Source: an uncultured Candidatus Saccharibacteria bacterium (GTDB lineage Bacteria; Patescibacteriota; Dojkabacteria; SC72). Taken from it: a stretch of DNA of 64,000 nucleotides. The notes beneath the pieces were generated by a model that saw nothing but the letters and a program-made list of their open reading frames with translations, did not search any database and had not been told where the DNA came from. Location of the stretch: NCBI GenBank assembly GCA_964536135.1, contig CAZHVM010000001.1:29268-93267 (forward strand), written 5' to 3'. Shown here in pieces: positions 2,447-62,623 of the stretch (the first letter of the stretch is position 1; each line of letters starts with the position of its first letter). The position numbers and the translations under genes are program-made.

Positions 2447-2447
2447 A

Positions 2448-2738: not shown

Positions 2739-2800
2739 TTTTATATGATGAAAATATTAAATATATATTAATATTATATCTCAATTGGGGAAGTTAAACA

Positions 2801-4423: not shown

Positions 4424-4451
4424 AGAAGGCTCTGTGCGAAAGGATTATCCC

Positions 4452-6848: not shown

Positions 6849-6898
6849 TCAAACAAGAATATGTATAATTGAAAAGATAAAATAATAAACAGACAAAT

Positions 6899-8654: not shown

Positions 8655-8665
8655 ATTTTCGAAGT

Positions 8666-9082: not shown

Positions 9083-9531
9083 TTGGTTAGTATCTGAATA
9101 ACAAGATTTTTTACTGTATTACCATCTGCTTTACCAGCGGTTTCTTTCATTACAGCTCCCATTAGCTTACCCATGTCACTCATACTAGAGATATTTAATT
9201 CTTTAATCTTGTTATTTATGATTGTTTTGATATCTTCTTCTGACATTAGTTCTGGGAGATATTTCTGCAATATCTCTAATTGGGATTTTTCTTTTTCTAC
9301 AAGGTCGTTTCTTCCCATTTGTGTAAATTGGGCAATGGAATCTTCAATTTTTTTTACTTCCTTTCTGAGGATTCTCTCTTCATCTTGTACAGTCATTTCA
9401 CTTTCTTGAGTAAGTTGAGCGTTCTTAATGGATGCTATTGCCATCTTCAAGATATCGCTAGCATTAGTATTTCCTTCTTTGGAGAAGGTAAACATATCTT
9501 TTCTTAAATCATCTGTGAGAGACATTTGCAA
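9079..9531 (-). CDS. GatB/YqeY domain protein
   Basis: 150 aa helical protein with a GatB/YqeY-like N-terminus; overlaps ybeY start by 4 nt (operon). Confidence 0.6.
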   Translation of the reverse strand: MQMSLTDDLRKDMFTFSKEGNTNASDILKMAIASIKNAQLTQESEMTVQDEERILRKEVKKIEDSIAQFTQMGRNDLVEKEKSQLEILQKYLPELMSEEDIKTIINNKIKELNISSMSDMGKLMGAVMKETAGKADGNTVKNLVIQILTK

Positions 9532-9548
9532 AAGCGTTAAAATTAAGA

Positions 9549-9752
9549 TTAATTTTTAGCTCTTCTTGCTGCACTTCTTCTTCTTCTTTTCATTTTTGCC
9601 CATTCTTTTCTCTTTGCAATATCCCCAAGAGAAGCTTTTACTCTGTATGCTTTTTCTCTGTATGTTTCAAGGATCTTTTCCCTAAGAACTTCTCTGTGAA
9701 GTCTTTTAAGAGCACTATCTATATTTTCGTTAGAATGTACGATTACTGACAT
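9549..9752 (-). CDS. rpsU: 30S ribosomal protein bS21
   Basis: 67 aa, highly basic C-terminus KRRRRSAARRAKN, N-terminal VIV..NE..D.ALKR motif typical of S21. Confidence 0.85.
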   Translation of the reverse strand: MSVIVHSNENIDSALKRLHREVLREKILETYREKAYRVKASLGDIAKRKEWAKMKRRRRSAARRAKN

Positions 9753-9797
9753 ATTTATATATTTATTATGTATGCTCGGTGATTATATCATACCTGT

Positions 9798-40981: not shown

Positions 40982-41962
40982 CTAGAATCCCATAGCTTCT
41001 AAAACTCTTGCCTCTGTCTCAGATGCTACTCGTTGGGCGTTTTTCTCTCCACTTTCCAAGAGATCGTAAATATATTCATCCCCTTTCCTATCTATTTCTG
41101 CTCTCTTTGCTCTAATTGGTTCCAAGAATGTTTCTATTGCGTTGAACAGTTTTGTCTTTACCTCTACATCACCAACGTTACCTTTTTTATACCTCTCTTT
41201 CAAATCTAAAATCTCTTCTTTATTTGGATTAAAGTAATCATGGTATATAAACACGGGATTTCCGTCCACTTCGCCAGGATCATTAGGATGTATTCTGTTT
41301 GGATCTGTGTACATAGACATAACCTTTTTCCTTACTGTCTCTGTATCGTCCGTAAAATATATGCCTCCTGTAGATTTTCCACTTTTCCCCTGCCCATCAA
41401 GACCAACCACGATATCTCCAATTAACCCCTTTGGTACATTGAAAACTTTCCCATATAAAGAATTAAAACTTAAAGCCAAATCATGAGCAATCTCAACATT
41501 CGCTTCGTTATCCTTCCCAACAGGAACAAGATCTGCATTCATTATTAAAATATCTGAAGCCATTAAAACAGGATATCCCATCAATCCATAAGTAAGCTTA
41601 TAGCCTAAGCCGAGCTTTTCTTTTAACATTGGCTGTCTTTCTAACTCAGGCATTTTAATTAACATTGAAAGAATAGTATTCAATCTATAGATCTGAGGAA
41701 TACGAGATTGTCTATAAAAAGTAATAACCTTCAGATCTAGTCCAAGGCTTAAATAAGTCCTCATCAAATTTAAGGTGTTTTGCTTTATCTCAGACACATT
41801 ATCGAAATGTGTCGTCAAGGCGTGATAGTCAGCAATAAAAATAAAGCTGTCAAAATCGTACTGCCTATCTATTCTATTTTTCAGGGTACCTACATATGCA
41901 GCAATTGGGAAAGTCCCTCCTGTCGCCCTGTCCCCTGTTAAAATTCTTTTCTTATCATTCAT
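40982..41962 (-). CDS. trpS: tryptophanyl-tRNA synthetase with degenerate HIGH-type motif
   Basis: Aligns with bacterial TrpRS (MASDILIMNADLVPVGKDNEANVEIAHDLALSFNSLYG vs [37 protein letters not shown]). KMSKS position reads KSGKS. The TIGN/HIGH position reads FPIAA. Confidence 0.75.
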   Translation of the reverse strand: MNDKKRILTGDRATGGTFPIAAYVGTLKNRIDRQYDFDSFIFIADYHALTTHFDNVSEIKQNTLNLMRTYLSLGLDLKVITFYRQSRIPQIYRLNTILSMLIKMPELERQPMLKEKLGLGYKLTYGLMGYPVLMASDILIMNADLVPVGKDNEANVEIAHDLALSFNSLYGKVFNVPKGLIGDIVVGLDGQGKSGKSTGGIYFTDDTETVRKKVMSMYTDPNRIHPNDPGEVDGNPVFIYHDYFNPNKEEILDLKERYKKGNVGDVEVKTKLFNAIETFLEPIRAKRAEIDRKGDEYIYDLLESGEKNAQRVASETEARVLEAMGF

Positions 41963-41986
41963 AGCTTACATTCTAACAAAATTATC

Positions 41987-43537
41987 TTGTATTATGCTAT
42001 ACTTTTCGAGATGTTAGAAGAACATAAAAATTTAAAAGACAAAATCATCCCCGTTCTACTTTCCATACTCTCCTCTATCATTATATTACTAGGAGCGGCA
42101 ATAATCTATCTATATTCAAGTGGATACAGAATAGATATATTTAAAAGAGAAATAAGTATAACTGGAGTCATAACGATACAGAGTGATCCAAATTTGGCAG
42201 AGATGTATATAAATCAGGAGAATGTTGGAAGAACACCAAGAAGCCATGTACTGAAAGTGGGAGATTATGACATCTCACTAAAGAAAGAAAGTTATAAAGA
42301 TTGGAACAAGAAAATTACTGTTGCTGAAGGAAAATCAACTCCGTTATTCCCATTTTTAGTTTATGACACAACCGCAAGTAAGGAAAAATGGCAGTCTGAT
42401 GGATTGATTGAGAAAATTTGGATGAATGAGACAAGAAACAATATCCTCTTCTTACAAAAAGATTCCAACTCTTCCTACTCGCTATGGGAATACACTATAA
42501 ATACCCCTATATGGGATTTCTCCACAAACCCTTCAAAAATACTCTCTCTAGAGTCAAATAAGATTGCTATAAGTATTTCTCCCAATGGACAGAGAGCAAT
42601 TCTAACCAGTACCGCTTCTGATACGACTTCATTCTACCTTCTCAATACTCAACAATTAAACACCCTAGGAAGTTCTAATCAATTGCCTTTTGGAAGCTAT
42701 TCTAAATCTACAATATCTTGGAGTAAAAACAATCGATATATTGTATTCGATTCTTCTAAAGAACTTCTCTCATACGACATTGAAAAACAAACATTTACAA
42801 CTCTTCTTAAAAAAGATGCTTCTCAAAAGTATATCTGGGATACAGATACAGAAGGTTCTCTATATATAATCGCAGAGATTTTAAGTGATGAGTTAGAAAA
42901 TATCTACACCTACTCCCTTACGCAAAAATCTCTTGCCGGAAACAATACAAAAACTATCATTGAAAAAATATACTTGCAAGGATCTGAAGAGTATATCAAA
43001 GAGTACAGAGATGCTGATGGTATTTGGCAAGAATTTACAAATTCTCCAGAGAGCACACAAAGCTCCGGAGAGATAAATGATTTAGATGTAAACGTAAGTG
43101 CGAAGGGTATGTATATATCAACCTCATTTGCATCTTACTGGTACTTTATTGATACCTCCAAATTTCTTATGATTTCCCCATATCCAACAGAATTACTCTC
43201 CTACTCCCCAGACTCTACAAAATTAGGATACAAGGATCTCAAAGGCTATCAGCTCTTTACCTTTGATAAAGAAGAGGAAGACCATACTGTGAGAATCGGT
43301 TCGAAGATCATAAATAACGTGACAAATAATTTCTTCTGGCTATCAGACTCGACATACATTTACTTCAAAGACGGAAATAATATATTTATATCTGACAAAG
43401 ATGGCGACAACAAATATTCATTAACAGAATCCACAAATATTCTTGAGTACTCAATAAACAACGCTCGAGATATCCTCTATACCTTCGAAAAGAATAGTGA
43501 TGGTAAATTAACCATTGTTGAGAATAAATTTCACTAA
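41987..43537 (+). CDS. membrane-anchored PEGA-domain protein with beta-rich C-terminal region
   Basis: N-terminal TM helix; PEGA-like segment (ITIQSDPNLAEMYINQENVGRTPRSHVLKVGDYDISLKKESYKDW); long Ser/Thr/Asn/Tyr-rich remainder. Confidence 0.55.
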   Translation: MYYAILFEMLEEHKNLKDKIIPVLLSILSSIIILLGAAIIYLYSSGYRIDIFKREISITGVITIQSDPNLAEMYINQENVGRTPRSHVLKVGDYDISLKKESYKDWNKKITVAEGKSTPLFPFLVYDTTASKEKWQSDGLIEKIWMNETRNNILFLQKDSNSSYSLWEYTINTPIWDFSTNPSKILSLESNKIAISISPNGQRAILTSTASDTTSFYLLNTQQLNTLGSSNQLPFGSYSKSTISWSKNNRYIVFDSSKELLSYDIEKQTFTTLLKKDASQKYIWDTDTEGSLYIIAEILSDELENIYTYSLTQKSLAGNNTKTIIEKIYLQGSEEYIKEYRDADGIWQEFTNSPESTQSSGEINDLDVNVSAKGMYISTSFASYWYFIDTSKFLMISPYPTELLSYSPDSTKLGYKDLKGYQLFTFDKEEEDHTVRIGSKIINNVTNNFFWLSDSTYIYFKDGNNIFISDKDGDNKYSLTESTNILEYSINNARDILYTFEKNSDGKLTIVENKFH

Positions 43538-43541
43538 GATA

Positions 43542-43615
43542 CGCATCCGGCCGGAATCGAACCGACAACCTACGCGTTAGGAGTGCGTTGCTCTGTCCTT
43601 TTGAGCTACGGATGC
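43542..43615 (-). tRNA. tRNA-Arg (anticodon CCT)
   Basis: Minus-strand cloverleaf: acceptor gcatccg/cggatgc, D arm gctc-aaaaggaca-gagc, anticodon stem acgca/cgcgt (one A-C mismatch) with loop ctCCTaa, T arm gtcgg-ttcgatt-ccggc; no encoded CCA. Confidence 0.65.
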
Positions 43616-43672
43616 ATGTATAAATATACCACATTTCCAGAAGTAATTTAATTAGCTATGGGATAATAGATA

Positions 43673-46555
43673 TTGTCATTTAATGGTATAATTAAGGTTG
43701 CTATGGAACAAGAGTATATAAAAATAAAAGGAGCAAGAGAGAACAACCTTAAGAATATATCAGTAGATATACCCAAAAACAAGCTTGTGGTATTTACTGG
43801 TGTATCTGGAAGTGGTAAATCTACGCTTGCATTTGACACCCTCTATGCAGAAGGTCAAAGAAGATACGTTGAATCTCTATCTTCCTATGCTAGACAGTTT
43901 CTAGGAGTAATGAAGAAACCCGATGTAGATTCAATCACAGGACTCTCTCCAGCAATATCCATAGACCAGAAAACAACAGGTACAAATCCTCGCTCTACAG
44001 TCGGAACCATTACAGAAATATACAATCATCTTCGACTACTCTATGGGCATATAGGACAACCCCACTGTCCAAGGTGTGGTTCCCCAATTCAATCACAAAC
44101 CATCCAACAAATAACAAATAAAGTGATCAAAGAGATCTCCAACACCTCTGAGGTTACACAGGTTGTTTCACCCATCATTAAAAACAGAAAAGGCGAATTT
44201 ACCGCTCTTCTAAGCAAACTCCTCTCGAAAGGCTTTTTAAGGGTCATTATAGATGGAGATACATACCTTCTTGACGATATAGAGGACATAAAACTAGAAG
44301 AAAACAACAAACATACAATAGATTTAGTAATAGATAGAATAGATTCCACCAAATTAGATAGAAAAAGACTCACAGATGCCATTGAACTAGCAATTACACA
44401 GTCAAATGGTGAAGTAAAGATATTACTTAAAGATAAAGAGCTATTCTTCTCAGAAAACAATACATGTCCGAAATGTGAGATATCCTATCCAAAGATCACT
44501 CCAGCATCCTTCTCTTTCAATGCTCCAGAGGGCGCATGCCCTAAGTGTGCAGGGCTAGGTGTTTTGAAAGAAATTGATGTAAATTTAATATACAACCCTG
44601 CCTTAACAATACTAGAGGGTGGCATCTTCCCATGGAGTAACAGAACTAGCAAAGATTCTTGGACATTGCGAATACTTCAAGGAATAGCTAAAGAACATGG
44701 TTTTAACCTTACTACACCAATCGGTAAATACCCAAAGGAAATTTTCGGCTTGATTTTCTATGGGAATGGCACAAAAGAGGCATATACAATTGAATACACC
44801 AATAGATTTGGTAGAACTAGACTCTATGAAGCCGAATATGAGGGAGTCATTCCAGAATTAGAGAGAAGATACAAGGAAACATCCTCGGATTATGCTCGAT
44901 TCGAGACAGAGAAGTACATGAGAGAGAACGTATGCCCTGTGTGTGAAGGAAAACGACTTAAACCCTACTCTTTAGCAGTTACTATCGATGGTAAGAATAT
45001 AGATGAAATTACCAATATGCCAACAAAAGATGTCTTAACATTCTTCAAAGCACTAGAGCTAAAAGGAAGTAAGAAAGACATTGCAGAACCAATAATTAAG
45101 GAAATTAATCAAAGATTAAATTTCTTAGAGAATGTCGGTTTAAACTACCTTTCGTTATCTAGAAAAGCCAATACACTCTCAGGTGGAGAATCACAAAGAA
45201 TTAGACTAGCTTCTCAAATAGGTACTGGACTTTCAGGAGTCCTCTATGTGCTAGACGAGCCATCTATTGGCCTTCACCAAAGAGATATCTCAAAACTCAT
45301 AACCTCCCTAAAAGATTTAAGAGATGGAGGAAATAGCATAATTGTAGTTGAACATGACGAAGAAATGACAAAGAGTGCCGACTGGATTTTAGATATTGGG
45401 CCATTTGCGGGTAAGCATGGTGGAAGCGTAGTTGCCAAAGGTACTTTAGAAGATATTAAGCACAGCGACTCGTTGACTGCGAAGTATCTCAACAAAGCCC
45501 TCTCTGTCGGGCAAGACATTCCTCAATCAATTCCAAGCACTAGCGGGAAAGAGATTTCTTTAATGGGTATAAAAACTCACAACTTAAAGAACTTAGATCT
45601 AACTATCCCACTAAACCAGCTAATTTGTATCACAGGTGTTTCTGGCAGCGGCAAGTCTTCACTGATAGCAGATACGCTTTATCCAGTACTAGCAAATAGA
45701 ATATCAAGGTCTAAGCTTCAAGAAGGAAAATATGACTCAATTGAGGGTTTAGAGAATGTAAATCAGGTAATTAATATCGATCAGTCTCCTATCGGAAGAA
45801 CTCCTCGCTCAAACCCGGCCACATACACAGGTGTATTTACCCAAATAAGAGAAATCTTCGCCCAAACAAACGAAGCACAAGCCAGAGGATACAAAGCTGG
45901 TAGATTTAGTTTCAATGCAAAAGGTGGAAGATGTGAGAAATGCCGTGGTGACGGCGTTTTAAAGATAGAGATGCAGTTCTTGCCAGACATGTACATAACC
46001 TGTGATGAGTGTAATGGTAGCCGATACAATGACGAAGCACTTCAAATAGATTTTAAAGGTAAAAATATATCTGAAATTTTAAAAATGACAGTCGAAGAAG
46101 CTTTAGAGTTTTTCAAAAATATTCCCTCTATATATCGGAAGCTTTCTGTTCTCAACGAGGTCGGTCTTGGATACATTGAACTCGGGCAATCAGCTCTTAC
46201 TCTATCTGGTGGAGAATCCCAGAGGGTAAAGCTTTCCAAAGAGCTTTCTAAGATGTCTCGAGGGCATACTTTATACATCCTTGATGAGCCTACTACAGGG
46301 TTACACTACTACGATGTAGATAAATTGTTAGTAATTTTAAGAAACTTGGTAAAAAAGGGTCACACAGTAATCACGGTTGAACATAATATGGATATTGTCC
46401 GACACTCAGACTGGATAATTGATCTCGGACCGGAAGGTGGAGACCAGGGAGGCTACATTATTGCTCAAGGGTCAGTGTCAGATATCATAAAAAACAAGCA
46501 AAGTTGGACTGGAAAATATCTTAAAAAATACATTGGTGAAACTTCACGGGAGTAA
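43673..46555 (+). CDS. uvrA: excinuclease ABC subunit A
   Basis: Two ABC ATPase modules (GVSGSGKST twice, LSGGESQR twice), zinc fingers (CPRCG, CPKC...[15 protein letters not shown]). TTG start in track; an ATG 11 codons in ([14 protein letters not shown]) is the more typical UvrA N-terminus. Confidence 0.95.
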
Positions 46556-46746
46556 ACACGATAGCCACATCTTTACTATCACAAAATGACTGGGTGTAAA
46601 AAATAACCCCAATTTGTATTTTCTTTTACTTAAAAATGCTTTTTGAGCAAAAACTGTTGAAAATGCAAAAACTTCAGATCTGTGTAAGTTCAGATAGTTT
46701 TAACGAAATCTTCATTACTCTTTTTTGAAATTTCCTGATGTTCCAC

Positions 46747-46995
46747 TTAGTACGATACTGAAAACACCCATTCTTCCTTACTTTCTTTTCCACAGATAAT
46801 ACACTTGCCCGAGGAGCCGACACCCTCTTTTGTGAGACATCTGGTGGTAGCCTTGGTTTCACTCTTAATCTTCTCCTCACACTCATTGTTACCACACCAA
46901 TGTGCTAGTACAAATCCCTTTTCATTGCTTAGGACACTCTTTAGCTCTTCATATGACCCTACTCTATGGGTTTTTGATACTAACCACAGCTTAAA
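46747..46995 (-). pseudogene. remnant of prolyl-tRNA synthetase C-terminal zinc-binding domain (no start codon)
   Basis: Minus-strand frame translates to ...GSYEELKSVLSNEKGFVLAHWCGNNECEEKIKSETKATTRCLTKEGVGSSGKCIICGKESKEEWVFSVSY*. Matches the archaeal/eukaryote-type ProRS C-terminal domain (AHWCG..ECE.KIK..T.AT.R......C..CGK......FA.SY end). Upstream frame runs into a stop with no Met. Coordinates approximate. Confidence 0.55.
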
Positions 46996-48364
46996 CTATC
47001 TTTCCCTCAAAGCCCCAATGCTGCGCAGCTTTGGCAAGTGCAGAATCTGGATTTTGGAGTATCCACTCATCTATTTTTCCTCTGCCCAACGCAATATCTT
47101 TGGCCTGCACTACCGCTTCTACACCAGCCTCTATACCCCATGGATGTCCTAACACTCCACCACCACACTGTATGATTATGTCCTCACCAAGTTGTTTAAT
47201 TGACTCATCAATAGTGCCTGGATGAAGACCACCAGAAGCTACATGCCATACTGGCTTCATGCCATACCAATTCTGCCCTAGTGTCATTGAACTTGCTGGC
47301 GTTACATCTAACTGTAATGTGTCTCTAATCAATTTTGGCTCTCCATAGTTTTCCATCTTAGTTTTTGGAGCACCACCATGTATTGAATCCACACCTAAAA
47401 GACGCATTAGCTTAGCAATAACTACCATAGACATTGAGAAATCAGCAATAAAGCCTTTGTCATATACTCCAGCACCAGAATCCCTATCAAAAAGACCATG
47501 CATAGCCCTATGTGCATGTATAGCCAATCCAGGATTTTTCAATCTCATTGTATGAACAGCAGAAAATCCAGTAACAACGACATCCAACATCATCCATCTT
47601 CCACCCTGTGCCTTTATACGATCTGTTCTCTCAATCATTGTATCAAAGTTAGAATGAGTAACATTACAAAGGTAGAACTTCTTTTTCCCAGATTTCTTCT
47701 CAATATCTCTTTGAACAGCATGTACAAGATCGCATCTGTCTTCAAATTTGTTAAAAAACAAGCTTGTTAGGTTCTCATCATCCTTAATCCCATGGTAATC
47801 ACCATTTGCAGCAGTAAACAGTACCTTTGCTAATTCGGCCTGCTCTTTGGCTGTTCTACCAACTTTTGGCTTAGGTACAGTACAAAGCAAAGGTCCCTCT
47901 TCCAGTTGCATTTGCTCCCTTACTCCACTGATACCAAACTGTGGACCAGGGAAAGATTGCACAATGGCTTTAGGAAATCGAACATCTAGACATCTAAAAG
48001 CTTTAAGCATCTTCATTCCATCTATATTCCCAACTATACCTGCTAGAAGACCAGACATATTTCCAAGCTCAAAAAGTTCTTTTTTGTAGGCTATCTTGAA
48101 TGTTTTTGTCTTTGGCTCAAGATCAAAAGCTATCGCTTTCATTTTGTCAGCCATCTTTACACCTGAGTTTTTTCCAGAATACACACCAGTCCACGTACCA
48201 GTAGAACTCTCAGCTGCACATGCAGCAGCTACATCCTCAAATTTATCCATACCGATACCATCGGCAAGCTCGATATCTAAAAAGGATATTATGTAGTCCT
48301 CATCGGGATTTTTTGGCTTCCATCCCTTAGGAGCAACATATGATGAATGATTTGAACTAAACAT
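46991..48364 (-). CDS. RuBisCO large subunit, form II/III-like
   Basis: Catalytic signatures present: PKPKVG (KPKLG-type), GDYHGIKDDENL (GxDFxKDDE with the carbamylated Lys), HAHRAMHG, GGGVLGHPWG; 457 aa. Confidence 0.85.
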   Translation of the reverse strand: MFSSNHSSYVAPKGWKPKNPDEDYIISFLDIELADGIGMDKFEDVAAACAAESSTGTWTGVYSGKNSGVKMADKMKAIAFDLEPKTKTFKIAYKKELFELGNMSGLLAGIVGNIDGMKMLKAFRCLDVRFPKAIVQSFPGPQFGISGVREQMQLEEGPLLCTVPKPKVGRTAKEQAELAKVLFTAANGDYHGIKDDENLTSLFFNKFEDRCDLVHAVQRDIEKKSGKKKFYLCNVTHSNFDTMIERTDRIKAQGGRWMMLDVVVTGFSAVHTMRLKNPGLAIHAHRAMHGLFDRDSGAGVYDKGFIADFSMSMVVIAKLMRLLGVDSIHGGAPKTKMENYGEPKLIRDTLQLDVTPASSMTLGQNWYGMKPVWHVASGGLHPGTIDESIKQLGEDIIIQCGGGVLGHPWGIEAGVEAVVQAKDIALGRGKIDEWILQNPDSALAKAAQHWGFEGKIV

Positions 48365-48448
48365 TGGCAGTAAATCTATATATTATACATCTACATATTA
48401 AATCAAACCTCTCCTTTTGTAAAATACCTATCTAGGATATAATGCGGT

Positions 48449-49450
48449 ATGTTTAAAAAATTCGTAGAAAAATATAATCTCCCTTCCTTTAGACTAAAAC
48501 AATTACAAGAGCAGTACTTCATACACAATATCTCCTCTTGGGACGAGCTTACTACATGGTCTAAAGATATGAGGGAAACATTAAAGAAGGAAGTCCCCTT
48601 TTCAAAGCTTGGAAATCTACAAGAGTTTAGCTCCAGTGATGGGAGAACAGTTAAGCTTCTCTCCTACACATATGATGGGTATCCAGTAGAGACAGTTCTA
48701 ATGAGAAACAAGGATAGAATAACCATTTGCATAAGTAGCATGAGTGGTTGTCCTGTTGGATGTAAGTTCTGTGCAACAGGAAGGATGAAGAACAACAGAA
48801 TCCTTGATGAACAAGAGATAATTGACCAGGTGATGTATTTCAAAAGGAAATTAGCAAAGAAAAACGAGAGTGTTACAAACATCGTTTTTATGGGTATGGG
48901 AGAGCCTTTGCTTAACTTGGACAATGTTTTAAACGCAATTAAGATACTTACAGATCCCGAGTTAATTGGACTGGGTAGAAGAAGAATTACTCTTTCTACA
49001 GTTGGATATATAGAACAATTGAAGGAATTCTTTAAAGCAAATACAGGTGTAAAGATAGCAATTAGTCTACATGCACCAAACCAAAGGCTAAGAGAGTTCC
49101 TGATGCCAAAAGTAGCTAAGGACAACAGGTTAGATGACTTAATGAAGGTATTAATTGACTACCAAAAGAAAAAGGGTAAAAAGGTTACATACGAGTATAT
49201 CCTCATAAAGGATGTAAATGATTCAGCAGAACATGCAAAGGAGTTAGCAAAGTTGCTTAAGAACCAGATTTGTTTAGTTAATCTGATTAATTTTAATAAG
49301 TCAGATAATATTCCTTTTGAAACTACAACAAAGAGAAGGGTTGAGGATTTTCAAACTATTCTTAATTCAAGAGATATTAACAATACACTAAGATATTCCC
49401 ATGGTAATGATATATTAGCTGCTTGTGGACAGTTGGCAAGTATTTCATAA
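48449..49450 (+). CDS. rlmN: radical SAM 23S rRNA/tRNA adenine-C2 methyltransferase RlmN
   Basis: CPVGCKFCATG radical-SAM cluster motif; C-terminal catalytic Cys in LAACGQL; 333 aa. Confidence 0.85.
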   Translation: MFKKFVEKYNLPSFRLKQLQEQYFIHNISSWDELTTWSKDMRETLKKEVPFSKLGNLQEFSSSDGRTVKLLSYTYDGYPVETVLMRNKDRITICISSMSGCPVGCKFCATGRMKNNRILDEQEIIDQVMYFKRKLAKKNESVTNIVFMGMGEPLLNLDNVLNAIKILTDPELIGLGRRRITLSTVGYIEQLKEFFKANTGVKIAISLHAPNQRLREFLMPKVAKDNRLDDLMKVLIDYQKKKGKKVTYEYILIKDVNDSAEHAKELAKLLKNQICLVNLINFNKSDNIPFETTTKRRVEDFQTILNSRDINNTLRYSHGNDILAACGQLASIS

Positions 49451-49505
49451 ACTTAAGTTTGATTTCATTAAGAAATCATTTTCCAGAAAAATGTTGTGAT
49501 AAGAT

Positions 49506-49916
49506 TTGTGCATGAAAAATGCTATCATAACAAAAGAAATTGGAGCTTCTCCAAACTATGACGAAAATAAAGTCGGCGATTATTTTGCTGCCCTTGGCTA
49601 CGACATTTTATTTCTCGCTATTAACAAGGCTTTACACCATACATCACCAGATATTGAAATGTGGGGCAAGAAATGGGAGATAAAAACTCCCAAAGAAAAC
49701 GGTAAATACACTATAGAGCATACAATTCAGCATGCTTCCAAGCAGTCTAAGCACATTATCATCGATTTACGTAAATCTAAAATGTCAGAATCAAAAGCAT
49801 TATTAAAGATTCAAAGAGAATCAAGATTACGAAAGGTAATCAAAACTGTATTGGTAATTACAAAATCAAGAGATCTCTTGATTATAAAGGGGAAGTTTGG
49901 TAGCATGAAAGCATAG
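49506..49916 (+). CDS. hypothetical basic protein (136 aa)
   Basis: Uninterrupted ORF followed directly by a strong terminator; no recognisable motif. Confidence 0.45.
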   Translation: MCMKNAIITKEIGASPNYDENKVGDYFAALGYDILFLAINKALHHTSPDIEMWGKKWEIKTPKENGKYTIEHTIQHASKQSKHIIIDLRKSKMSESKALLKIQRESRLRKVIKTVLVITKSRDLLIIKGKFGSMKA

Positions 49917-49961
49917 GAACACCTCCTTTGTCGGATGACTTAGGGGGTGTTCTTTTTTTTT
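49917..49961 (+). terminator. rho-independent terminator
   Basis: 10-bp stem ggaacacctcc/ggggtgttc with 16-nt loop followed by a T9 run. Confidence 0.7.
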
Positions 49962-49987
49962 ATACCTTCTTTCTTATTTGTTTAAAT

Positions 49988-50061
49988 TCGGGGTGACTCG
50001 ATTTGAACGAGCGACCTCTACGTCCCGAACGTAGCGCTCTAGCCATCTGAGCTACACCCCG
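49988..50061 (-). tRNA. tRNA-Pro (anticodon CGG)
   Basis: Minus-strand cloverleaf: acceptor cggggtg/caccccg, anticodon stem ctacg/cgtag with loop ttCGGga (G37), T arm gctcg-ttcaaat-cgagt, discriminator A; no encoded CCA. Confidence 0.8.
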
Positions 50062-50240
50062 TTACTCTTCTCCCCTTTCTTGTAATCTACATACTCCTTG
50101 ATTAAACCGGCTAATAACACAGTAAAATCATCTACATTACCTAACAAAGGTATAGCATCACTTATAAAATCAATAGGAAGTATTAAATATACTAATGCAA
50201 CAATAATTATCCATCTATCCTTAAAGAATCTCTTTAACAT
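50052..50240 (-). CDS. DUF1232 (YkvA-like) small membrane protein
   Basis: 62 aa with LILPIDFISDAIPLLGNVDDFTVLLAGL matching the DUF1232 consensus; overlaps the tRNA-Pro 5' end by about 10 nt. Confidence 0.6.
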   Translation of the reverse strand: MLKRFFKDRWIIIVALVYLILPIDFISDAIPLLGNVDDFTVLLAGLIKEYVDYKKGEKSNGV

Positions 50241-50257
50241 AATATCTTTTTAACAAA

Positions 50258-52027
50258 TTACATCTGATCCACAACCTCTATACCCAAAAGATTTAACCCC
50301 TCCTTCATAGTTACCATCGTGGCTTCAACAAGACTAAGAAGGAATTCCTTGTCCTCGTCCTGAGCATCAAGTATACGAACATTCTGGTAGAAATTGTTAA
50401 ATTTCTGTCCTAAATCGAACAGATATTGGCAAAGTATCGATGGACAATAGCTCATACCGGAGTTAAGCACAACACTTCTGTATTTGCCAATGCGATTAAG
50501 CAACTCCTTCGCATAGGGATTTCCTAAACAGCTACCAACACACAGGCTCCCGAGATTCTTAGAATCCGAATCTCTCAGGAGAGAACTTCCCCTTGCATAC
50601 ACATACAGAAGATATGGTCCCGTATCTCCGTCAAAGCTAATACTTTTTTCAAAATCAAAGATAACATCCTTACCTACCCCTACTTTCAAGAAAGCGTATT
50701 TTATTGCCGCTTGAGCTATCTTTTCAGCACTCTTTTCCTTCTCACCCTTACCATTCTCCTCCATTACAGCAAGGACCCTCTTCTTTGTTTCGTCTAACAA
50801 CCACTGAGCCTCTATTATTTTCCCTTTCCTGCTAGACATTTTCTCAGCACCTGGAAGCTTAACCATACCATGTGGCATATGTACTGTTTTCTCTGCCAAA
50901 TCTTTTCTTAATTTGCTCAAAGCATCTAATAAGACTTTGAAATATCCAGATTGCTCATTACCAGTAATTATTATTGACTCGTCATACTCAACTAACTCAC
51001 CCTTTTTAATAGCCAATCCCAAATCTTTTGCCTCGTAGGTAGGAATTCCATACTTATTTACAAAAACCCTTGTATGCAAACCCTTTTCTTTGTCTCCCTC
51101 GTATATAATTGCACCCTCATCTTCCTTAAATACGCTTCCTACATTGTCCAAAACAATCTTTAAACCACTCTCTCCTACCTCACTTTCGAAAAAGTAATAG
51201 TCAAAAGTAGTTCCTACTCGTTCATATATTGTTTCGAAGTAATCTAAACACCACGATCTTCCCTTCTGGTACATATCTTTAAGATCAACTCCTTCATACA
51301 CAGGAACATCTTTCTTCTCTAACTGAGGAATGAACATGGAGAAAATGTAATAGTTAATAGCATCAATTTCCTTAATTGCAGCTTCATCTTTGTCATCGTC
51401 ATAATACTTAAATCCAAGCATATATGCTTCTCCTAGATACTTTACCCTCTCAATTAGACTTTTCTGCTCTACATCCTTAAAAGACACACCATTCTCTTCC
51501 ATCATCTTGACTATACCCCACAAAGTTTTGGCCACATGAAGACCAACATCCCCTTGGTAGTTTGCTCTCTTTACTGTGGCCCCAAGAGCCTCTGAAAGCC
51601 TCGCAAAAGATTCTCCAACTATGTTGGTATATAGGTGACCAATATGTAGTATTTTAAATGGATTAGCATCTGTATACTCAATTACAATCTTCTTACCATC
51701 TTTACCACCAATGCTTGTAAATTCCCCACTCTTTACCTTACTTAATTCCTTAAGTAAATGCTGGTTTGATACAAAGAAATTTACAAATCCTGGCTTAGCA
51801 GCCTCTACCTTTTCAATATCCTCATCCTTCTCAATTTTACTTACAATATCGTTGGCAATATCCAAGGGATTTTTCTTTAAAATAGAAGACAATCTCATCG
51901 CGATATTGCTTGAATAGTCTCCATTCCCACTAACTCTTGGCTCCTCTACTTCAATGATATCGTACTGCACTCCCATCTCTTTTAGAGATCTTTCAATCAT
52001 TCCCTCTATTTTTTTCTTAATATCCAT
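50258..52027 (-). CDS. argS: arginyl-tRNA synthetase
   Basis: N-terminal Arg_tRNA_synt_N-like domain, HIGH-type motif (NPFKILHIGHLYTNIVGE), C-terminal DALR anticodon-binding region; 589 aa. Confidence 0.9.
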   Translation of the reverse strand: MDIKKKIEGMIERSLKEMGVQYDIIEVEEPRVSGNGDYSSNIAMRLSSILKKNPLDIANDIVSKIEKDEDIEKVEAAKPGFVNFFVSNQHLLKELSKVKSGEFTSIGGKDGKKIVIEYTDANPFKILHIGHLYTNIVGESFARLSEALGATVKRANYQGDVGLHVAKTLWGIVKMMEENGVSFKDVEQKSLIERVKYLGEAYMLGFKYYDDDKDEAAIKEIDAINYYIFSMFIPQLEKKDVPVYEGVDLKDMYQKGRSWCLDYFETIYERVGTTFDYYFFESEVGESGLKIVLDNVGSVFKEDEGAIIYEGDKEKGLHTRVFVNKYGIPTYEAKDLGLAIKKGELVEYDESIIITGNEQSGYFKVLLDALSKLRKDLAEKTVHMPHGMVKLPGAEKMSSRKGKIIEAQWLLDETKKRVLAVMEENGKGEKEKSAEKIAQAAIKYAFLKVGVGKDVIFDFEKSISFDGDTGPYLLYVYARGSSLLRDSDSKNLGSLCVGSCLGNPYAKELLNRIGKYRSVVLNSGMSYCPSILCQYLFDLGQKFNNFYQNVRILDAQDEDKEFLLSLVEATMVTMKEGLNLLGIEVVDQM

Positions 52028-56008: not shown

Positions 56009-59000
56009 TTATGGCATATTTACCCACCAGAAAGGTTGTTTCTCACCACTACTGTTAAACCATTTGCCATGCCTCATTACCTGATCCATTGTAGGGCCAT
56101 CAGTACCATAGTCTAGTTGCACCTGGCTGATATAGAAGGTTGCATCTATATCCCAAGTATTAAATATTGCTTTGTATTGGAAGTATTGCCCACTTGATGG
56201 GAAAGTTAGTTCCTCTCCTGTATCGTCTGAAAGATATCCAGAGGTCGACCTTAGATCATCTATCCAGAGATTCCTTCCCTCATCTCCATTTGTAATGTTA
56301 AGAGTCAATAAATTTATAGCATTTACTTGAGTATTTATAGTTCTGTTCTTAATCGGTATATACTCCCTTTGCCATTTGAATACATCTGCATTCACTGTAT
56401 ATCCACCACTTGGAAATGTGGAACCTGTATCCCAAGAAGATACGGTTACAGCTCCTGTGCTAGCGGTTATGGCAGATACAGTACCTTGAGCTATATACTC
56501 TGTACCATCATAGTTTTCCTTTATAATGACTTTTTCGTCTTTGTACAACCCACTTCCTAGCTCATCTAGACCATAAACTGTTGCATCAATATTAAAAGAT
56601 GTATCTCCAGAGCCTGTTATGAGATTACCACTTACCAGAGATGCTCCAAAGTCTATCTGTACTGGGTGAGTTCGTGATTCCATTTCATATACCTGACGAA
56701 TATCTTCAGGGTTTCTAGCAATATTAGATATCCTAACACCATCAATAATTCCATCAAAATAGCTGACATAGTTTGTCATCATTGATCCAATAGTTAAATC
56801 CATTGCTTGAGTATTTGGAGTTACAGTAACACCAGTGGTAACTTTAACAAGTTGCCCATTGTGGTACAATCTTAGCTCATCTTCATCATCATCAAAAACA
56901 CCAGTTAGATGATGCCAAGAATTTAGCTCCAGTGATTCGTTCACTGTAGCATAGTAGTTTGATCCTGCAGCAACTTCAAAACCGAAGCTGTAACCAGCTC
57001 CTGTATTTCCTGCCCAAGAAGCATCATAACAGAGGCTAAGCCAAAAATTATGATTGTATGTTGAAGTTTCTCCGTACCATCCCTTTGTCACTATCCCTCC
57101 ACCACTCTCAGAAACACTTGGTAGACTATCAGGTTTTATCCATGCTTCAACAGTAAATGAAGAACTAAAATCTAAACTGTTGTCATCAAGAATAGTTACT
57201 TGATCTGAACCACTAAAATCAAGCCCATCTCCCATTTTTCCATCTGCCGGGGCTGGATAATCTAGCTGCGTAACAAGAGTTCCCCAGAGAGCTTTTGCAA
57301 CAAGTATATTATATGTCTTTGGTGTGAAGCTAACCCAAGTGGAATTGTTATCATATTGCCATCCGCTATTATATCTTACTGCTATAAAATTATTACTATT
57401 ATTAGCGTATGCTGTTATACTTTGCCCTGAAAGAGAAGGCGAATACATAATATAAAGGGTCGAAGAGACATCTTGTGCAGCGACACCATAATTAATACTT
57501 GTAGGAGATAGCGTCTCCCCTTCTAAAGTTACTATCTGACAGAAGCTATCACCACCTGGGCACGTAATATCCATCTCATAGTTGTTTGCAACTCCATTCC
57601 ACTGGTTCATTATCATTGTTAAGTTAGATGATAAAATTCCATATCTCATTCCATAGTAAGAAGTAATTCCAGAATTCCCTTCCCTACTTTGATCTATATA
57701 TGTCGAACCTTCACCACCTTCATCAAAGTTCCATAGACCAACAGTATTGGTGTCTGGTTGGTAGTTAGAGTACTCTGTTTCTCCCCATATAGTATTCAAA
57801 TATGAACCTGGTCTGTCCCCTGCAACATATATTGGTAATGTCGTTGCGGAAGAGAGATCCTTTTCCTCAATGATTGTATTCACGAATCCATCTTTTCCCA
57901 ATCTATAGGCATTTGCAATTTCATTTGTTGTACGAGCACCGCTTGAAATACGTATTTCATCCACCGAACCATTAAAATAAGCTTCACTAATCTGTGCTTG
58001 AGCTATCTTTAATGCCATACTTGAGAAATTAAATGTCATTGCTGTAGTACTTTTTAATACGCCGTCTAGATAACATCTACCCGTTGTTCCATCAAACGTA
58101 AATGCTACATGGTTCCAAGCCCCAACTACAGGAGTTATTTTACAATTACCAACATCCCAAGCCCCCAAATATATTCCTCCATCGGACTGATGTAAAATAT
58201 GGAAATTACCCGCAGAAGCGCCTCCAAGAAGTAATGGCCACTGCCTTGTTGTGGGGGTTGCTGTTGGTTTTATCCACATCTCTATGGAGAATGGGGTGTT
58301 TCCGAGACTTAATCCGCTAACACTTGCCAAAGATAGATAATCACTGCTTCCATTGAAACTCCTTGCTCCTTCAATCTTTCCGCTATTTAAATATGATGTT
58401 CCAGTTGGAGTTAAATGGTTTCCACTATTACCACTATCTTTGATGTATGCACCACTTCCTCCTCGTTCATCTAAATGCCATAGACCTACAGTATATCTAT
58501 CTACATTTTGCATTCCAGCAGATATTTTCTTACTGTAATCTCCTCCTATTTTAATTATAGAATCACTATTCGTCTGTATTACCTTAGATATTTGAGTACC
58601 CGTAAAATAATTTGCTTGTATTTCATCTTCCGTCCTTACAATACTTGAGATACGGATTTCATCTATTGAGCCATTAAAATAAGCTTCACTAACCTGTGCT
58701 TGAGCTATCTTTAGTGCTGTACTAGATAAATTAAATGTCATCGCTGTAGTGCTTTTTAATGCTCCATCAAGATAACATCTACCCGTTGTTCCATCAAACG
58801 TAAATGCTACATGGTTCCAAGCTCCAACTACAGGAGTCACCGAACACTCTCCACCATTCCAAACTCCAAGGCTGATAGTTCCACTTGTATTATACGAAAT
58901 ATGCAAATTACCTGCAGAAGCATCGCCCAAGAGTAATGGCCACTGCCTTGTTGTGGGGGTTGCTGTTGGTTTTATCCACATCTCCGTGGAGAATACTGTG

Positions 59001-62000
59001 TTTCCTAAACTCAATCCACTAACACTTGCTACAGATAGATAATCGCTACTTCCGTTAAAATTCCTTGCTTTTCCATATGGACCATCCACTATGGTTGTAC
59101 CAGTTGCAGTTCCCGTATTACTACCAACAACATCAGCTACAGATGTACCACTTGTTTCTTCCATTGGCCAATATCCTAAGAGCCCTGTTGTATCAGTATC
59201 ATAAAGATATGGGTTATCGAAACTCTCCCATAGTGAATCACTCCCTCTTTTACTCTTCGAAGACCATCCGCTAGACTCTTTTACATCTCTTCCGGATGTA
59301 TCTGTAAAATTGGTTAACGTTCCATTACATGAAGCACCGCAGCTACCAATCGCACTAGCTGTTGTACCACTTAATTCATTCATCTTCCAAAAGGCAAACA
59401 TACTATCTGAGCTGTATGGCGTTTCTCCATCTGATGTAGAATAGTTTGATACAATTTCAGATGCGGATAGCACACGCGAATAGACTTGAATATTATCAAT
59501 ATTCCCATCAAAATAGTTCTGAGTACCTGGCTCATATCTACCAATAGAAAGGATATTTGTCCCAGAAGCTATCCCCATAGTACCAACAGTACTAACAGGA
59601 CTATTAGCGTCCTCCACACCATTAACATATAGGTGAAGTCCAGTAGCATCATTAGCCTTAAAAGTCGTACATACATGTGTCCACTTATCTGCTACTGCAG
59701 AATTCGATGCACCTTCAATATATGCCGTACCTGATATATATACTTTGTACATATCCGTTCTCCCCGTTTCCTGCCCTATATCATCTTTTAAAAGCATAAA
59801 CCCTTCCCACGCTATGTTGTCAATCTTTGTTAGTATGAAATCATCATCAGAGATTGTGTCATGCTTAACCCATGTACAAACCGATAATTCTGTTAAAGCA
59901 TCAAAACTGTCAACATCCCCTACACTAATATAATCGTCTACACCATCAAGAGCAATTCCACCATCACCATATGATGTCCAATTACTCCATGTACTATTAT
60001 CTGTACTTACCCTATATTGAAACTCAATATTTCCAGCTTGGTAATTGGAAAGTACTTCTGAGTCTGGAAGTGCTCTTGAATAAATTCTTACCAAATCTAT
60101 GTTTCCATTCCAAAAGTCACCTCCAGATCCATAACCTTCTTTCCCAATGGTCAATGCTGTGCTGGTATTAGTTATGCTTTCAGAAAAGGCTACAGAGTCC
60201 TGTAATACACCATTAATATATAATTTGGCATAAGAGCCATCATATGTCCCGACAATATGTTGCCATTCGTTATATCCTTTGGACAAGCCCTCTGGCCAAG
60301 CACTATTTGTGCCTGAAAAAACCCAGAAACGAAAATATCCATCCTCGAAATAAAGACCATACCCGTCTTCCCATATACTGTTTGATTTTGCAATTATTGC
60401 AGGATAGGAGCTACTACCCTTATTAAGATTAACCCATGCTTCAAGTGTAATATTTGTTTCTAGATTCAAATAAGCATTATTAGGAACACTTATATAGTCA
60501 TCAACTCCATCAAACATTACTGCTCCAGATCCCCATCTTCTGTTGTCTGCAGTCCATCCTGTACCTACAGCTGCATCTTGACCAGTGGTAGTCATACTTG
60601 TTAATGTACCATTACATGATGTACCACAGCTACCTCCACTTACCGCAGTGGTACCGCTAGTTTCATTGAAATTCCACTGAGCTACTAATCCAGTTGTACT
60701 ATATGGTGTTTCTCCATCCCCTGTATTTACACCAGATGGTATCCAAGACAATGTAGCTTCTGACATACTACTACCCATATCCATGGAAGAGGAGGTATAT
60801 TCTCCAAAGATATTACCTTCTTCGGCTTCCGTTGGTTTATACCTAATAATTACAATTCCTGAGCCACCAGTACCACCATTGCCTCCCCCTGTTGCACCAC
60901 CACCACCACCACCACCTAGCCCATTGGTACCAGCATTTCCCACTGTTCCTCCACCACCACATGCTCCTGGACTTCCACTAGTAGTACGACCTGACGAGGC
61001 TCCTCCTCCAGCATAACACACAGAAGTTCCTGAAATTGAAGAGTATGCACCGGTACCACCATTGCCTGCTGTTTTATATCCTCCAGTAGTTCCAGCTGCC
61101 CCTGCACCACCACCACCACCACCATTATAAGCCGGTGAGGCTCCTGTTCCACCACCATTATAACCCTGTGAACCTATACCTCCAGAGGCAGTAGAATTCC
61201 ATGCGGCGGCACCACCACCACAACCTCCATTTCCACCATTGGCAGTAGGTGCTTTGCCAGCACCTCCACCATAAGCAGTTATTGTCGAAAACTCTGAATC
61301 ACCTCCGTTTGAGCCAGCTACTCCTCCCGCACCAACCGTGACAGAAAATGAACCTTCTGAAATTACAAATGTTGAATCATATACCATACCCCCTGCACCA
61401 CCACCACTATTAACCAAGCCACCACTCCCACCACCACCACCACCACCAACTACTAAAACTGCAACATCACCCGAACCTGTACATACAAAATCTCCACTTG
61501 CCGTAAATGTGTGAATCTTATAAACACCATCCATAGTCACAGTACCACCAGTACAATTAAAAGCAGAAGTTGGTTGTTCAATTTGTATCTTCGGTCCAGT
61601 TACGGATTCTACACCATTAAATATTCCGCCACTAAAATCTGTAGTATCATCATGTACAATACTAGGATCTATCCTTACAGGAAATACCCTTTCACTACTT
61701 AACAACCATTCTAAACTTACAGTAACCTTTGCCCTGTAGTTATCATTCTCTCCCTCTTCTACCTTTAGTTTTACATCAAATGTCTTGCTATTAATATCAT
61801 CAATAGCAAAGTTTGGTAAGAAATGTGCTAAATACCTACCCTTACTATCCACAAAATAATATGTGCTTGTACTCTGTCCATCAATAGTAAACCAACCTTC
61901 TTTTAATTCAACATCACTATCCATCTTCAAATCAAAAACAAACTCATTAACAGGAAGTGAACATTCCTTGACTTTACAACTATCCTGGTATGCCTCCAAA

Positions 62001-62623
62001 TCTCTAATAATTATCTCCTCTTTCAATCCCAAACCCTTCATTATCTGGTATTCCAAATCTACACCATTTGCAACATCCTTATTCAATACAGTTTGTTTGG
62101 ATACTGGAACCTCTTGATCCTCATATACCCCTATCTCTCGGCCAACATCTATTAATTCTGTAGATGTCTTTATACTATCCGTACCGATTACATCCGCGAC
62201 CAATACAACCTCATCCCCATATTTCTCCAGATTTTCTCCTGTGAGATCCACACCTACTAAAGACATCTCTATGCCATATCTTTCTTTTTTTTGAAAAAGC
62301 TTTGCTATTTTTGTAAAGATATTACCCTTTTCTTTTTCAAAAGGATTATTAGCTGATGTCTGTGCCTCAAACCTTACCCACTGCTTATCTGGTTGTTCTA
62401 CATTACCAAAATCAACAGAGAATTTAGGATTTTTGTTTACCAGATATGCAACACTTCCTTCCTTAGGAACAAATATGTTGTCATTGGGAGATATCCTTCC
62501 AAAGAGAAAATACATAGTAAGACCGATAGCTAGCTGTAGAGAAAGTGCAACAACAAAAATAGTTGTTTTGTACTTACAAAAGAGACTCTTTATTCTGTTT
62601 TTTAAGGCAGATTTTTTCATCAT
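56009..62623 (-). CDS. giant (2204 aa) cell-surface protein with multiple LamG/concanavalin-A-like lectin domains and a glycine-rich block
   Basis: N-terminal TM/signal helix; about 200-aa Gly-rich segment (GGGGGGSGG...GGTGGSGIVIIRY); at least five LamG-like units (FNGSSDYLS...MWIKP...WNHVAFTFDG...YLDG...DEIRIS pattern), two of them nearly identical. Confidence 0.8.
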   Translation of the reverse strand: MMKKSALKNRIKSLFCKYKTTIFVVALSLQLAIGLTMYFLFGRISPNDNIFVPKEGSVAYLVNKNPKFSVDFGNVEQPDKQWVRFEAQTSANNPFEKEKGNIFTKIAKLFQKKERYGIEMSLVGVDLTGENLEKYGDEVVLVADVIGTDSIKTSTELIDVGREIGVYEDQEVPVSKQTVLNKDVANGVDLEYQIMKGLGLKEEIIIRDLEAYQDSCKVKECSLPVNEFVFDLKMDSDVELKEGWFTIDGQSTSTYYFVDSKGRYLAHFLPNFAIDDINSKTFDVKLKVEEGENDNYRAKVTVSLEWLLSSERVFPVRIDPSIVHDDTTDFSGGIFNGVESVTGPKIQIEQPTSAFNCTGGTVTMDGVYKIHTFTASGDFVCTGSGDVAVLVVGGGGGGGSGGLVNSGGGAGGMVYDSTFVISEGSFSVTVGAGGVAGSNGGDSEFSTITAYGGGAGKAPTANGGNGGCGGGAAAWNSTASGGIGSQGYNGGGTGASPAYNGGGGGGAGAAGTTGGYKTAGNGGTGAYSSISGTSVCYAGGGASSGRTTSGSPGACGGGGTVGNAGTNGLGGGGGGGATGGGNGGTGGSGIVIIRYKPTEAEEGNIFGEYTSSSMDMGSSMSEATLSWIPSGVNTGDGETPYSTTGLVAQWNFNETSGTTAVSGGSCGTSCNGTLTSMTTTGQDAAVGTGWTADNRRWGSGAVMFDGVDDYISVPNNAYLNLETNITLEAWVNLNKGSSSYPAIIAKSNSIWEDGYGLYFEDGYFRFWVFSGTNSAWPEGLSKGYNEWQHIVGTYDGSYAKLYINGVLQDSVAFSESITNTSTALTIGKEGYGSGGDFWNGNIDLVRIYSRALPDSEVLSNYQAGNIEFQYRVSTDNSTWSNWTSYGDGGIALDGVDDYISVGDVDSFDALTELSVCTWVKHDTISDDDFILTKIDNIAWEGFMLLKDDIGQETGRTDMYKVYISGTAYIEGASNSAVADKWTHVCTTFKANDATGLHLYVNGVEDANSPVSTVGTMGIASGTNILSIGRYEPGTQNYFDGNIDNIQVYSRVLSASEIVSNYSTSDGETPYSSDSMFAFWKMNELSGTTASAIGSCGASCNGTLTNFTDTSGRDVKESSGWSSKSKRGSDSLWESFDNPYLYDTDTTGLLGYWPMEETSGTSVADVVGSNTGTATGTTIVDGPYGKARNFNGSSDYLSVASVSGLSLGNTVFSTEMWIKPTATPTTRQWPLLLGDASAGNLHISYNTSGTISLGVWNGGECSVTPVVGAWNHVAFTFDGTTGRCYLDGALKSTTAMTFNLSSTALKIAQAQVSEAYFNGSIDEIRISSIVRTEDEIQANYFTGTQISKVIQTNSDSIIKIGGDYSKKISAGMQNVDRYTVGLWHLDERGGSGAYIKDSGNSGNHLTPTGTSYLNSGKIEGARSFNGSSDYLSLASVSGLSLGNTPFSIEMWIKPTATPTTRQWPLLLGGASAGNFHILHQSDGGIYLGAWDVGNCKITPVVGAWNHVAFTFDGTTGRCYLDGVLKSTTAMTFNFSSMALKIAQAQISEAYFNGSVDEIRISSGARTTNEIANAYRLGKDGFVNTIIEEKDLSSATTLPIYVAGDRPGSYLNTIWGETEYSNYQPDTNTVGLWNFDEGGEGSTYIDQSREGNSGITSYYGMRYGILSSNLTMIMNQWNGVANNYEMDITCPGGDSFCQIVTLEGETLSPTSINYGVAAQDVSSTLYIMYSPSLSGQSITAYANNSNNFIAVRYNSGWQYDNNSTWVSFTPKTYNILVAKALWGTLVTQLDYPAPADGKMGDGLDFSGSDQVTILDDNSLDFSSSFTVEAWIKPDSLPSVSESGGGIVTKGWYGETSTYNHNFWLSLCYDASWAGNTGAGYSFGFEVAAGSNYYATVNESLELNSWHHLTGVFDDDEDELRLYHNGQLVKVTTGVTVTPNTQAMDLTIGSMMTNYVSYFDGIIDGVRISNIARNPEDIRQVYEMESRTHPVQIDFGASLVSGNLITGSGDTSFNIDATVYGLDELGSGLYKDEKVIIKENYDGTEYIAQGTVSAITASTGAVTVSSWDTGSTFPSGGYTVNADVFKWQREYIPIKNRTINTQVNAINLLTLNITNGDEGRNLWIDDLRSTSGYLSDDTGEELTFPSSGQYFQYKAIFNTWDIDATFYISQVQLDYGTDGPTMDQVMRHGKWFNSSGEKQPFWWVNMP
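57950..59100 (-). repeat. intragenic tandem duplication of a LamG domain (two copies of about 450 nt, about 690 nt apart, very high nucleotide identity)
   Basis: Long identical runs (e.g. ccgttgttccatcaaacgtaaatgctacatggttccaagc in both copies); encoded repeats differ at only about 20 of about 150 residues. Confidence 0.75.

Follow-up and report, generated by a model that had tools for sequence, protein, structure and literature searches.

The window analysed here, a 64-kb stretch of DNA, carries immediately downstream of a RuBisCO gene what is very probably a non-functional 3' remnant (a pseudogene fragment) of the chromosomal proS gene for prolyl-tRNA synthetase (ProRS). As ascertained by tblastn, blastn and Pfam comparisons, this remnant (46747..46983, minus strand) comprises codons 413-490 and the TAA stop of an ancestral 490-codon proS of the archaeal/eukaryote type, and it encodes a linker helix followed by the complete C-terminal zinc-binding domain, with the cysteine ligands and the terminal tyrosine. 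The host is presumably a Candidatus Dojkabacteria (WS6, CPR) bacterium from biogas-plant digestate.

Translated on the minus strand, positions 46747-47010 of the window read as a TAG codon (46998-46996), 82 sense codons and a TAA codon (46749-46747). The peptide of the 82-codon open frame (46995..46747, minus strand) is FKLWLVSKTHRVGSYEELKSVLSNEKGFVLAHWCGNNECEEKIKSETKATTRCLTKEGVGSSGKCIICGKESKEEWVFSVSY. Compared with Pfam by hmmscan, it matched ProRS-C_1 (PF09180; E=5.3e-21; 75 bits for a cutoff of 31.5) over frame residues 15-82 and profile positions 1-71 of 71. These are the 68 residues in which an earlier reading, made by a model from the bare letters (the sequence-only reading), had rightly recognised an orphan ProRS C-terminal domain on the minus strand, beside RuBisCO. 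The closest solved structure is the ProRS of T. thermophilus (1H4Q, residues 404-466 of 477, E=4e-10), to which the cysteine pairs align, and the zinc-ligand cysteines, the HWCG motif and the terminal tyrosine are all kept. Only positions 46983..46747 of the frame derive from proS. Positions 46984-46990 are a 7-nt junction filler (5'-gctgtgg-3', minus strand), delimited by blastn against relatives and by the junction alignment, and positions 46991-46995 are the end of RuBisCO, whose stop codon (46993-46991) the frame overlaps in the +1 register relative to RuBisCO. No ATG, GTG or TTG occurs in the 82-codon frame before codon 77, the sole exception being a GTG located 6 codons ahead of the stop, and the ORF listing of the window has no entry for this frame.

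The rest of a ProRS is absent from the window. The nearest relative, found by scanning the GTDB species representatives with the 82-aa peptide, is the Ca. Dojkabacteria MAG DAOSSC01 (DAOSSC010000008, locus L003), which is 93% identical to that peptide. When its 490-aa ProRS was used as a tblastn query against the 64-kb window, only residues 413-490 were matched, at 46983..46750, with 94.9% identity. Neither this sister ProRS nor that of M. jannaschii detected a class II catalytic core (PF00587, tRNA-synt_2b) anywhere in the 64-kb window by tblastn. The HGTP anticodon-binding domain (PF03129) was not found either, the homology to the relatives' ProRS starting at residue 413, past this domain. 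The absence of a start codon, of a catalytic domain and of an intact proS in the window, all three noticed from the letters, thus withstood the frame reading and the tblastn searches. Of the parts of a functional ProRS, the feature has the C-terminal ProRS-C_1 domain; because it has neither a catalytic core nor an anticodon-binding domain and lacks both a start codon and a ribosome-binding site, it cannot be a ProRS. We also considered, and rejected, the restoration of a ProRS by a hidden exon or by a frameshift near 46990 joining the frame to a ProRS body, the outcome that the sequence-only reading had named as its own refutation: what lies upstream is a RuBisCO complete to its normal stop, and the window holds no ProRS core.

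This RuBisCO large-subunit gene (46991..48364, minus strand) is intact. It encodes 457 aa with the Pfam domains RuBisCO_large_N and RuBisCO_large, of a form III or II-III-like type; the closest NCBIfam model, TIGR03326 (rubisco_III), scores 380 bits, under its cutoff of 497. Form II/III or III-like RuBisCO is well documented in Dojkabacteria (PMC5113843). The window RuBisCO is 96.5% identical in amino acids to that of L003, with which it has the C-terminus GFEGKIV in common, and the homology runs to its normal TAA stop at 46993-46991. On the other side, uvrA (43703..46555, plus strand; 950 aa from the ATG at 43703, the ORF list starting it instead at the upstream TTG at 43673) runs towards the remnant; to the right of proS this neighbour is conserved, a 950-aa UvrA with UvrA Pfam domains occupying the equivalent position in L003, L031, L032 and L033. 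The convergent intergenic region between the proS and uvrA stops (46556..46746) is conserved, falling in the blastn alignments of the window with L001 (81%), L003 (83%) and L035 (85%), and the transcripts of both genes presumably end in it.

Upstream of RuBisCO, an 84-nt spacer (48365-48448) separates it from the divergent rlmN gene, and an intact tRNA-Pro (CGG) gene, detected with ARAGORN, lies 3 kb from the remnant (49988..50061, minus strand). Between rlmN and tRNA-Pro (region 49442-49984), a plus-strand ORF of 136 aa (49506-49916) has no match in NCBIfam. It has a 134-aa counterpart in L003; in L031 and L033 a 62-aa DUF1232 gene lies nearby instead, and the copy of the ORF in contig L030 has a precomputed match to CdiA_C (PF18451). 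This region may be a small, toxin-related variable insert. Elsewhere in the window, the minus strand carries a very large ORF of 2,204 aa (56009-62623).

The origin of the remnant is best read from the gene order of its relatives. In L003, rlmN (minus strand) is followed by RuBisCO (plus strand, ending in GFEGKIV and the stop), a 31-nt spacer, an intact 490-aa proS (plus strand) and a convergent uvrA. RuBisCO likewise precedes an open 490-aa proS in L031-L034 (four contigs from four samples, carrying protein P0277), in the Logan contigs L035 and L036 and in the metagenome contigs L037-L039, and proS converges on uvrA wherever the contig reaches that far. The intact order is thus found in at least nine contigs from several samples, at approximately 85% nucleotide identity to the window. 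Because the relatives share RuBisCO, a 490-aa proS and a convergent uvrA, the ancestral state is RuBisCO followed by proS in the same orientation, with uvrA facing proS.

Between L003 and the window, blastn returned three collinear blocks of 83-87% identity. L003 positions 2-3956 align to window positions 50968..46991, L003 positions 5224-10288 align to window positions 46983..41919, and the third block lies further on. L003 positions 3957-5223 (1,267 nt, i.e., the 31-nt spacer plus proS codons 1-412) have no counterpart in the window, which has gctgtgg (46990-46984) there instead. The endpoints are alike against five relatives (L003, L031, L033, L034 and L035; 79-87% identity), at 46991 and at 46983 or 46982, and blastn found no counterpart of the relatives' proS bodies in the window. 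What is missing is the 5' 84% of proS, in one contiguous block. With an intact syntenic orthologue in the relatives and a single missing block of defined endpoints, both of which are expected of a deletion remnant, the window locus is a deletion scar at which 1,267 nt were lost and 7 nt gained. Of the two fates proposed for the gene from the letters, the decayed proS or rearrangement scar is therefore upheld by the 1,267-nt deletion relative to the relatives, with a reservation on 'decayed': the remnant has a low dN/dS (0.035 against L003) and neither an indel nor a stop, which points to a recent loss and not to a prolonged erosion. An imperfect direct repeat (ATAGAGTAGG.CATATG-like) occurs in the window at 46940-46965 (minus strand) and in L003 at 3972-3990 and 5228-5250; in the intact relatives one copy stands just 5' of the start of proS and the other within its tail. 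A deletion via this imperfect repeat, ATAGAGTAGG.CATATG, was rejected, as the junction is not at the repeat.

Two other histories of the junction have to be weighed against a deletion. The sequence-only reading had envisaged that RuBisCO, or a RuBisCO-bearing segment, was inserted into proS and split the gene. Such an insertion, for which nothing speaks but that the fragment lies next to the RuBisCO stop, is refuted by synteny: the ancestral order in at least nine contigs is RuBisCO, 31 nt and intact proS, RuBisCO being directly 5' of an intact proS in all close relatives, and no 5' part of proS is found upstream of RuBisCO, where only the 84-nt spacer to rlmN intervenes and tblastn found nothing. 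Alternatively, the dominant genome may have an intact proS, the junction being a misjoin, the product of chimeric molecules or the mark of a defective sub-population. The loss of an essential, single-copy aminoacyl-tRNA synthetase (aaRS) gene is biologically awkward, tRNA-Pro is still present, the deletion allele was seen in one sequencing run alone (SRR8925806), and there are further short contigs with odd proS joins (L001 and L002, see below). However, exact look-ups of the window RuBisCO and RlmN proteins, used to find the strain in other samples and which returned only SRR8925806, a digestate metagenome of a full-scale biogas plant (PMC7842101), led to a Logan contig of that run (L030, 4,589 nt) that is 100% identical to window positions 50032..45444. 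This contig crosses the junction unbroken with approximately 1.5 kb or more on each side, and the distance from the RuBisCO stop to the uvrA stop is 436 nt in both L030 and the window, so that two assemblies, probably built from the same reads, have the identical junction.

A De Bruijn misjoin requires a shared k-mer. No direct repeat is shared by the two breakpoints, as judged from the intact relatives and the junction alignment, and the 7-nt filler gctgtgg matches neither flank, which disfavours a k-mer-mediated assembly collapse. A misjoin, which the sequence-only reading had asked to be told apart from a real rearrangement, is thus unlikely, and the junction, from its nucleotides, fits illegitimate recombination. 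Taken as a whole, the explanation by an artefact or a minority defective haplotype is improbable, if less so than the insertion of RuBisCO, although, with the two assemblies probably sharing their reads, an intact haplotype may coexist with the deletion; we retain the deletion in the sampled genome as the preferred reading.

The substitution pattern bears on the age of this deletion. Over the 75 C-terminal codons of the proS tail, the Nei-Gojobori method gave 20 synonymous and 4 nonsynonymous differences between the window and L003 (dN/dS 0.035), 25 and 4 between the window and L031 (0.023), and 23 and 5 between L003 and L031, which are both intact (0.034); for RuBisCO, the window and L003 differ by 145 synonymous and 18 nonsynonymous changes (0.021). 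Among the window, L003, L031 and L035, 5 synonymous substitutions and 1 nonsynonymous substitution fall on the window branch, the branches of the intact L003 and L031 being alike. The probability of at most 1 nonsynonymous change of 6 under neutrality is 0.0017, and there is no indel or stop in the remnant relative to its relatives; neither relaxed selection nor a disabling mutation is thus seen. From the 5:1 pattern and this probability, the fragment evolved under ProRS-type constraint for most of the branch, and a neutral phase, roughly estimated, would occupy no more than about a fifth of it. The dN/dS values would fit both a recent deletion and, less likely, a fragment still under selection. 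We infer a recent event because the remnant has not begun to decay. This absence of decay is compatible with the status of pseudogene, since that status is based on the loss of 84% of the gene.

The second branch of this alternative, namely that the remnant is still a gene, its zinc-binding domain being made as a separate small protein acting in trans, e.g., in a split ProRS, was considered as a rival reading. Translation could in principle occur by termination-reinitiation at a CTG or by +1 slippage at GUU-UAA-G, the latter giving a RuBisCO-zinc-binding-domain fusion. The frame is fully open; the zinc-ligand cysteines, the HWCG motif and the terminal tyrosine are intact; the whole Pfam domain and the linker are kept; a dN/dS of 0.035 is equally expected under continued selection on the fragment; and L001 and L002 keep an open C-terminal domain after different truncations. 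The zinc-binding domain at the C-terminus is an integral part of archaeal/eukaryote-type ProRS. The mammalian enzyme depends on it for its stability and is not active without it, the domain being packed against the ATP site (PMC7960942). The remnant, however, has no ATG, GTG or TTG and no correctly spaced Shine-Dalgarno sequence. The sole near-cognate start is the CTG, one base past the RuBisCO stop, and the GAGGG found 14 nt upstream of it is no normal Shine-Dalgarno sequence, because it is too far from the CTG. A simple scan revealed no promoter aimed at the remnant beyond chance, and a simple terminator scan gave 0 matches to a canonical terminator around it. The remnant is therefore most likely carried, untranslated, as the 3' tail of the RuBisCO mRNA. 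Moreover, any recent deletion would also show a low dN/dS.

The short homologues of the domain count against a gene as well. A first protein search returned two short proteins only, P0001 (128 aa, 85% identity) and P0002 (94 aa, 65% identity). When 1.84 billion representative proteins were searched exhaustively with a profile, 2,493 matches were obtained; among the best 150 of these 2,493, the short ones form a continuum of 75-475 aa, with the domain nearly always C-terminal in the protein, the pattern expected of contig-end cuts. The loci that were checked (those of the closest relatives and those with a short upstream flank) have a full-length proS or reach the contig end. No short homologue with a start codon of its own was found to recur across genomes, and no free-standing version of ProRS-C_1 emerged from the profile search of 1.84 billion representative proteins. 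A stand-alone ProRS-C_1 family was consequently rejected, P0001 and P0002 being independent truncations and the length continuum being typical of contig-edge fragments. We know of no free-standing ProRS zinc-binding domain.

P0001 and P0002 come from the contigs L001 and L002. L001 (positions 1-467; Logan SRR29870302) joins proS codons 1-25 out of frame to the last ~115 codons, and its comparison with the 93%-identical intact L035 reveals a clean internal deletion of 1,031 nt (L035 positions 976-2006 are missing). This frame-shifting deletion is an independent event in a sister lineage, and it argues against a gene, as it is another recent accident. In the more distantly related L002 (positions 484-937; ENA ERZ23498388), rplQ (L17) contributes its first ~67 codons, which are joined in +1 to the proS tail (last ~85 codons), and a convergent uvrA comes next. 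In no other retrieved locus does rplQ adjoin proS, so that L002 reflects a rearrangement on a larger scale or else a chimeric contig. Both L001 and L002 were found with this domain as the query, and because only truncations retaining the C-terminal domain are detectable with a C-terminal query, their 'recurrent retention' of the domain is an ascertainment effect. In the window, L001 and L002 alike, the fragment stands in +1 to the ORF ahead of it, which had hinted at programmed frameshifting; this idea was dropped, with three cases, no slippery motif and a plain deletion in L001. Altogether, we see little prospect that the remnant is still a gene, and marginally less that its zinc-binding module is under selection and expressed, alone or appended to RuBisCO (CTG reinitiation or a +1 shift at GUU-UAA-G), complementing in trans a ProRS body from another locus. 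If true, the latter would make this a naturally split ProRS, or the lineage one without a conventional proS at all. The pseudogene fragment remains our preferred reading.

This reading leaves the supply of ProRS activity to be accounted for. proS is normally an essential, single-copy gene, and the intact tRNA-Pro(CGG) located 3 kb away implies a continued need for ProRS activity in this organism. An intact or relocated proS of the same species, with a tail identical to that of the window, was sought in the closest ProRS clusters with their members and was not found (best tail 71 of 75), nor was one found in the JGI metagenomes. Since proS is essential and neither the window nor, for this species, the protein databases yielded a compensating copy, a fixed deletion needs an unobserved second gene. 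A compensating proS elsewhere in the genome, a second or a xenologous copy, appears likeliest. A xenologous copy is plausible because swapping of an aaRS gene is seen 6 kb away, at trpS.

As an observation in its own right, trpS (40982-41962, minus strand) stands in a conserved slot between a PEGA-domain gene and mreB. It is compared here with the trpS genes in the same slot of L003 (10245-11255) and L031 (10981-11997): the proteins are only 40% identical, and the flanks have 79-87% DNA identity. The window TrpRS has 'FPIAAY' at the class I HIGH site and 'KSGKS' for KMSKS, a signature common to dozens of Dojkabacteria TrpRS, whereas the gene in this slot of L003 and L031 is a xenologue with the canonical HIGH/KMGKS motifs. 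The possibility that the window trpS, devoid of a canonical HIGH motif, is decaying was rejected, as it is of the mainstream conserved Dojkabacteria type. Two matches to the window TrpRS, P0339 and P0340 (496-500 aa), have an added PF04073 domain (YbaK/ProRS-type aminoacyl-tRNA editing), an unusual fusion.

We propose the following sequence of events. In the ancestor, proS followed RuBisCO head to tail at a distance of 31 nt, and both faced uvrA. By illegitimate recombination, a single deletion would then have taken 1,267 nt and left the 7-nt filler; lost with it were the spacer, which held the proS ribosome-binding site, and codons 1-412, with the start codon, the catalytic core of class II and the anticodon-binding domain. 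The 78 codons left over stand in the +1 frame right after the RuBisCO stop, without a start codon, and would most likely be transcribed only, as a 3' untranslated tail of the RuBisCO mRNA. ProRS activity would come from another proS elsewhere in the genome, or the assembled haplotype may be a defective variant.

These findings carry a warning for annotation, namely that such a ProRS-C_1 match should be labelled as a pseudogene fragment and not as a small zinc-finger gene. They also point to a Dojkabacteria genome without proS at the conserved locus, i.e., with an essential gene missing from its usual place, and if the complete genome truly lacked any other proS, this would be remarkable for a bacterium carrying tRNA-Pro.

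Compared with known systems, the remnant has the tail of an archaeal/eukaryote-type class IIa ProRS (PF00587, PF03129 and PF09180), such as that of T. thermophilus (1H4Q) and the 488-491-aa Dojkabacteria ProRS: over its last 78 residues it has 95% identity to residues 413-490 of the sister protein, with which it shares the ...SY end. It differs from these enzymes in having no start codon, no ribosome-binding site and neither of the two preceding domains, catalytic and anticodon-binding. The free-standing YbaK/ProX editing domains and the split AlaRS of Nanoarchaeum are split or trans-acting aaRS modules, and these are genes conserved in many genomes and equipped with translation signals of their own. 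The remnant is similar to them in that one aaRS domain is encoded apart from the enzyme, and it is unlike them in having neither a start codon nor a conserved stand-alone family, and in its probable origin in a recent deletion. It also resembles the ordinary deletion pseudogenes of bacteria, which arise by illegitimate recombination with little or no microhomology and sometimes with filler: it has a syntenic intact orthologue, sharp endpoints, a 7-nt filler and a lost start. It departs from them in that the lost gene encodes an essential aaRS and that the remnant has so far accumulated no damage. The remnant is thus a known kind of object, an ordinary deletion-derived pseudogene fragment.
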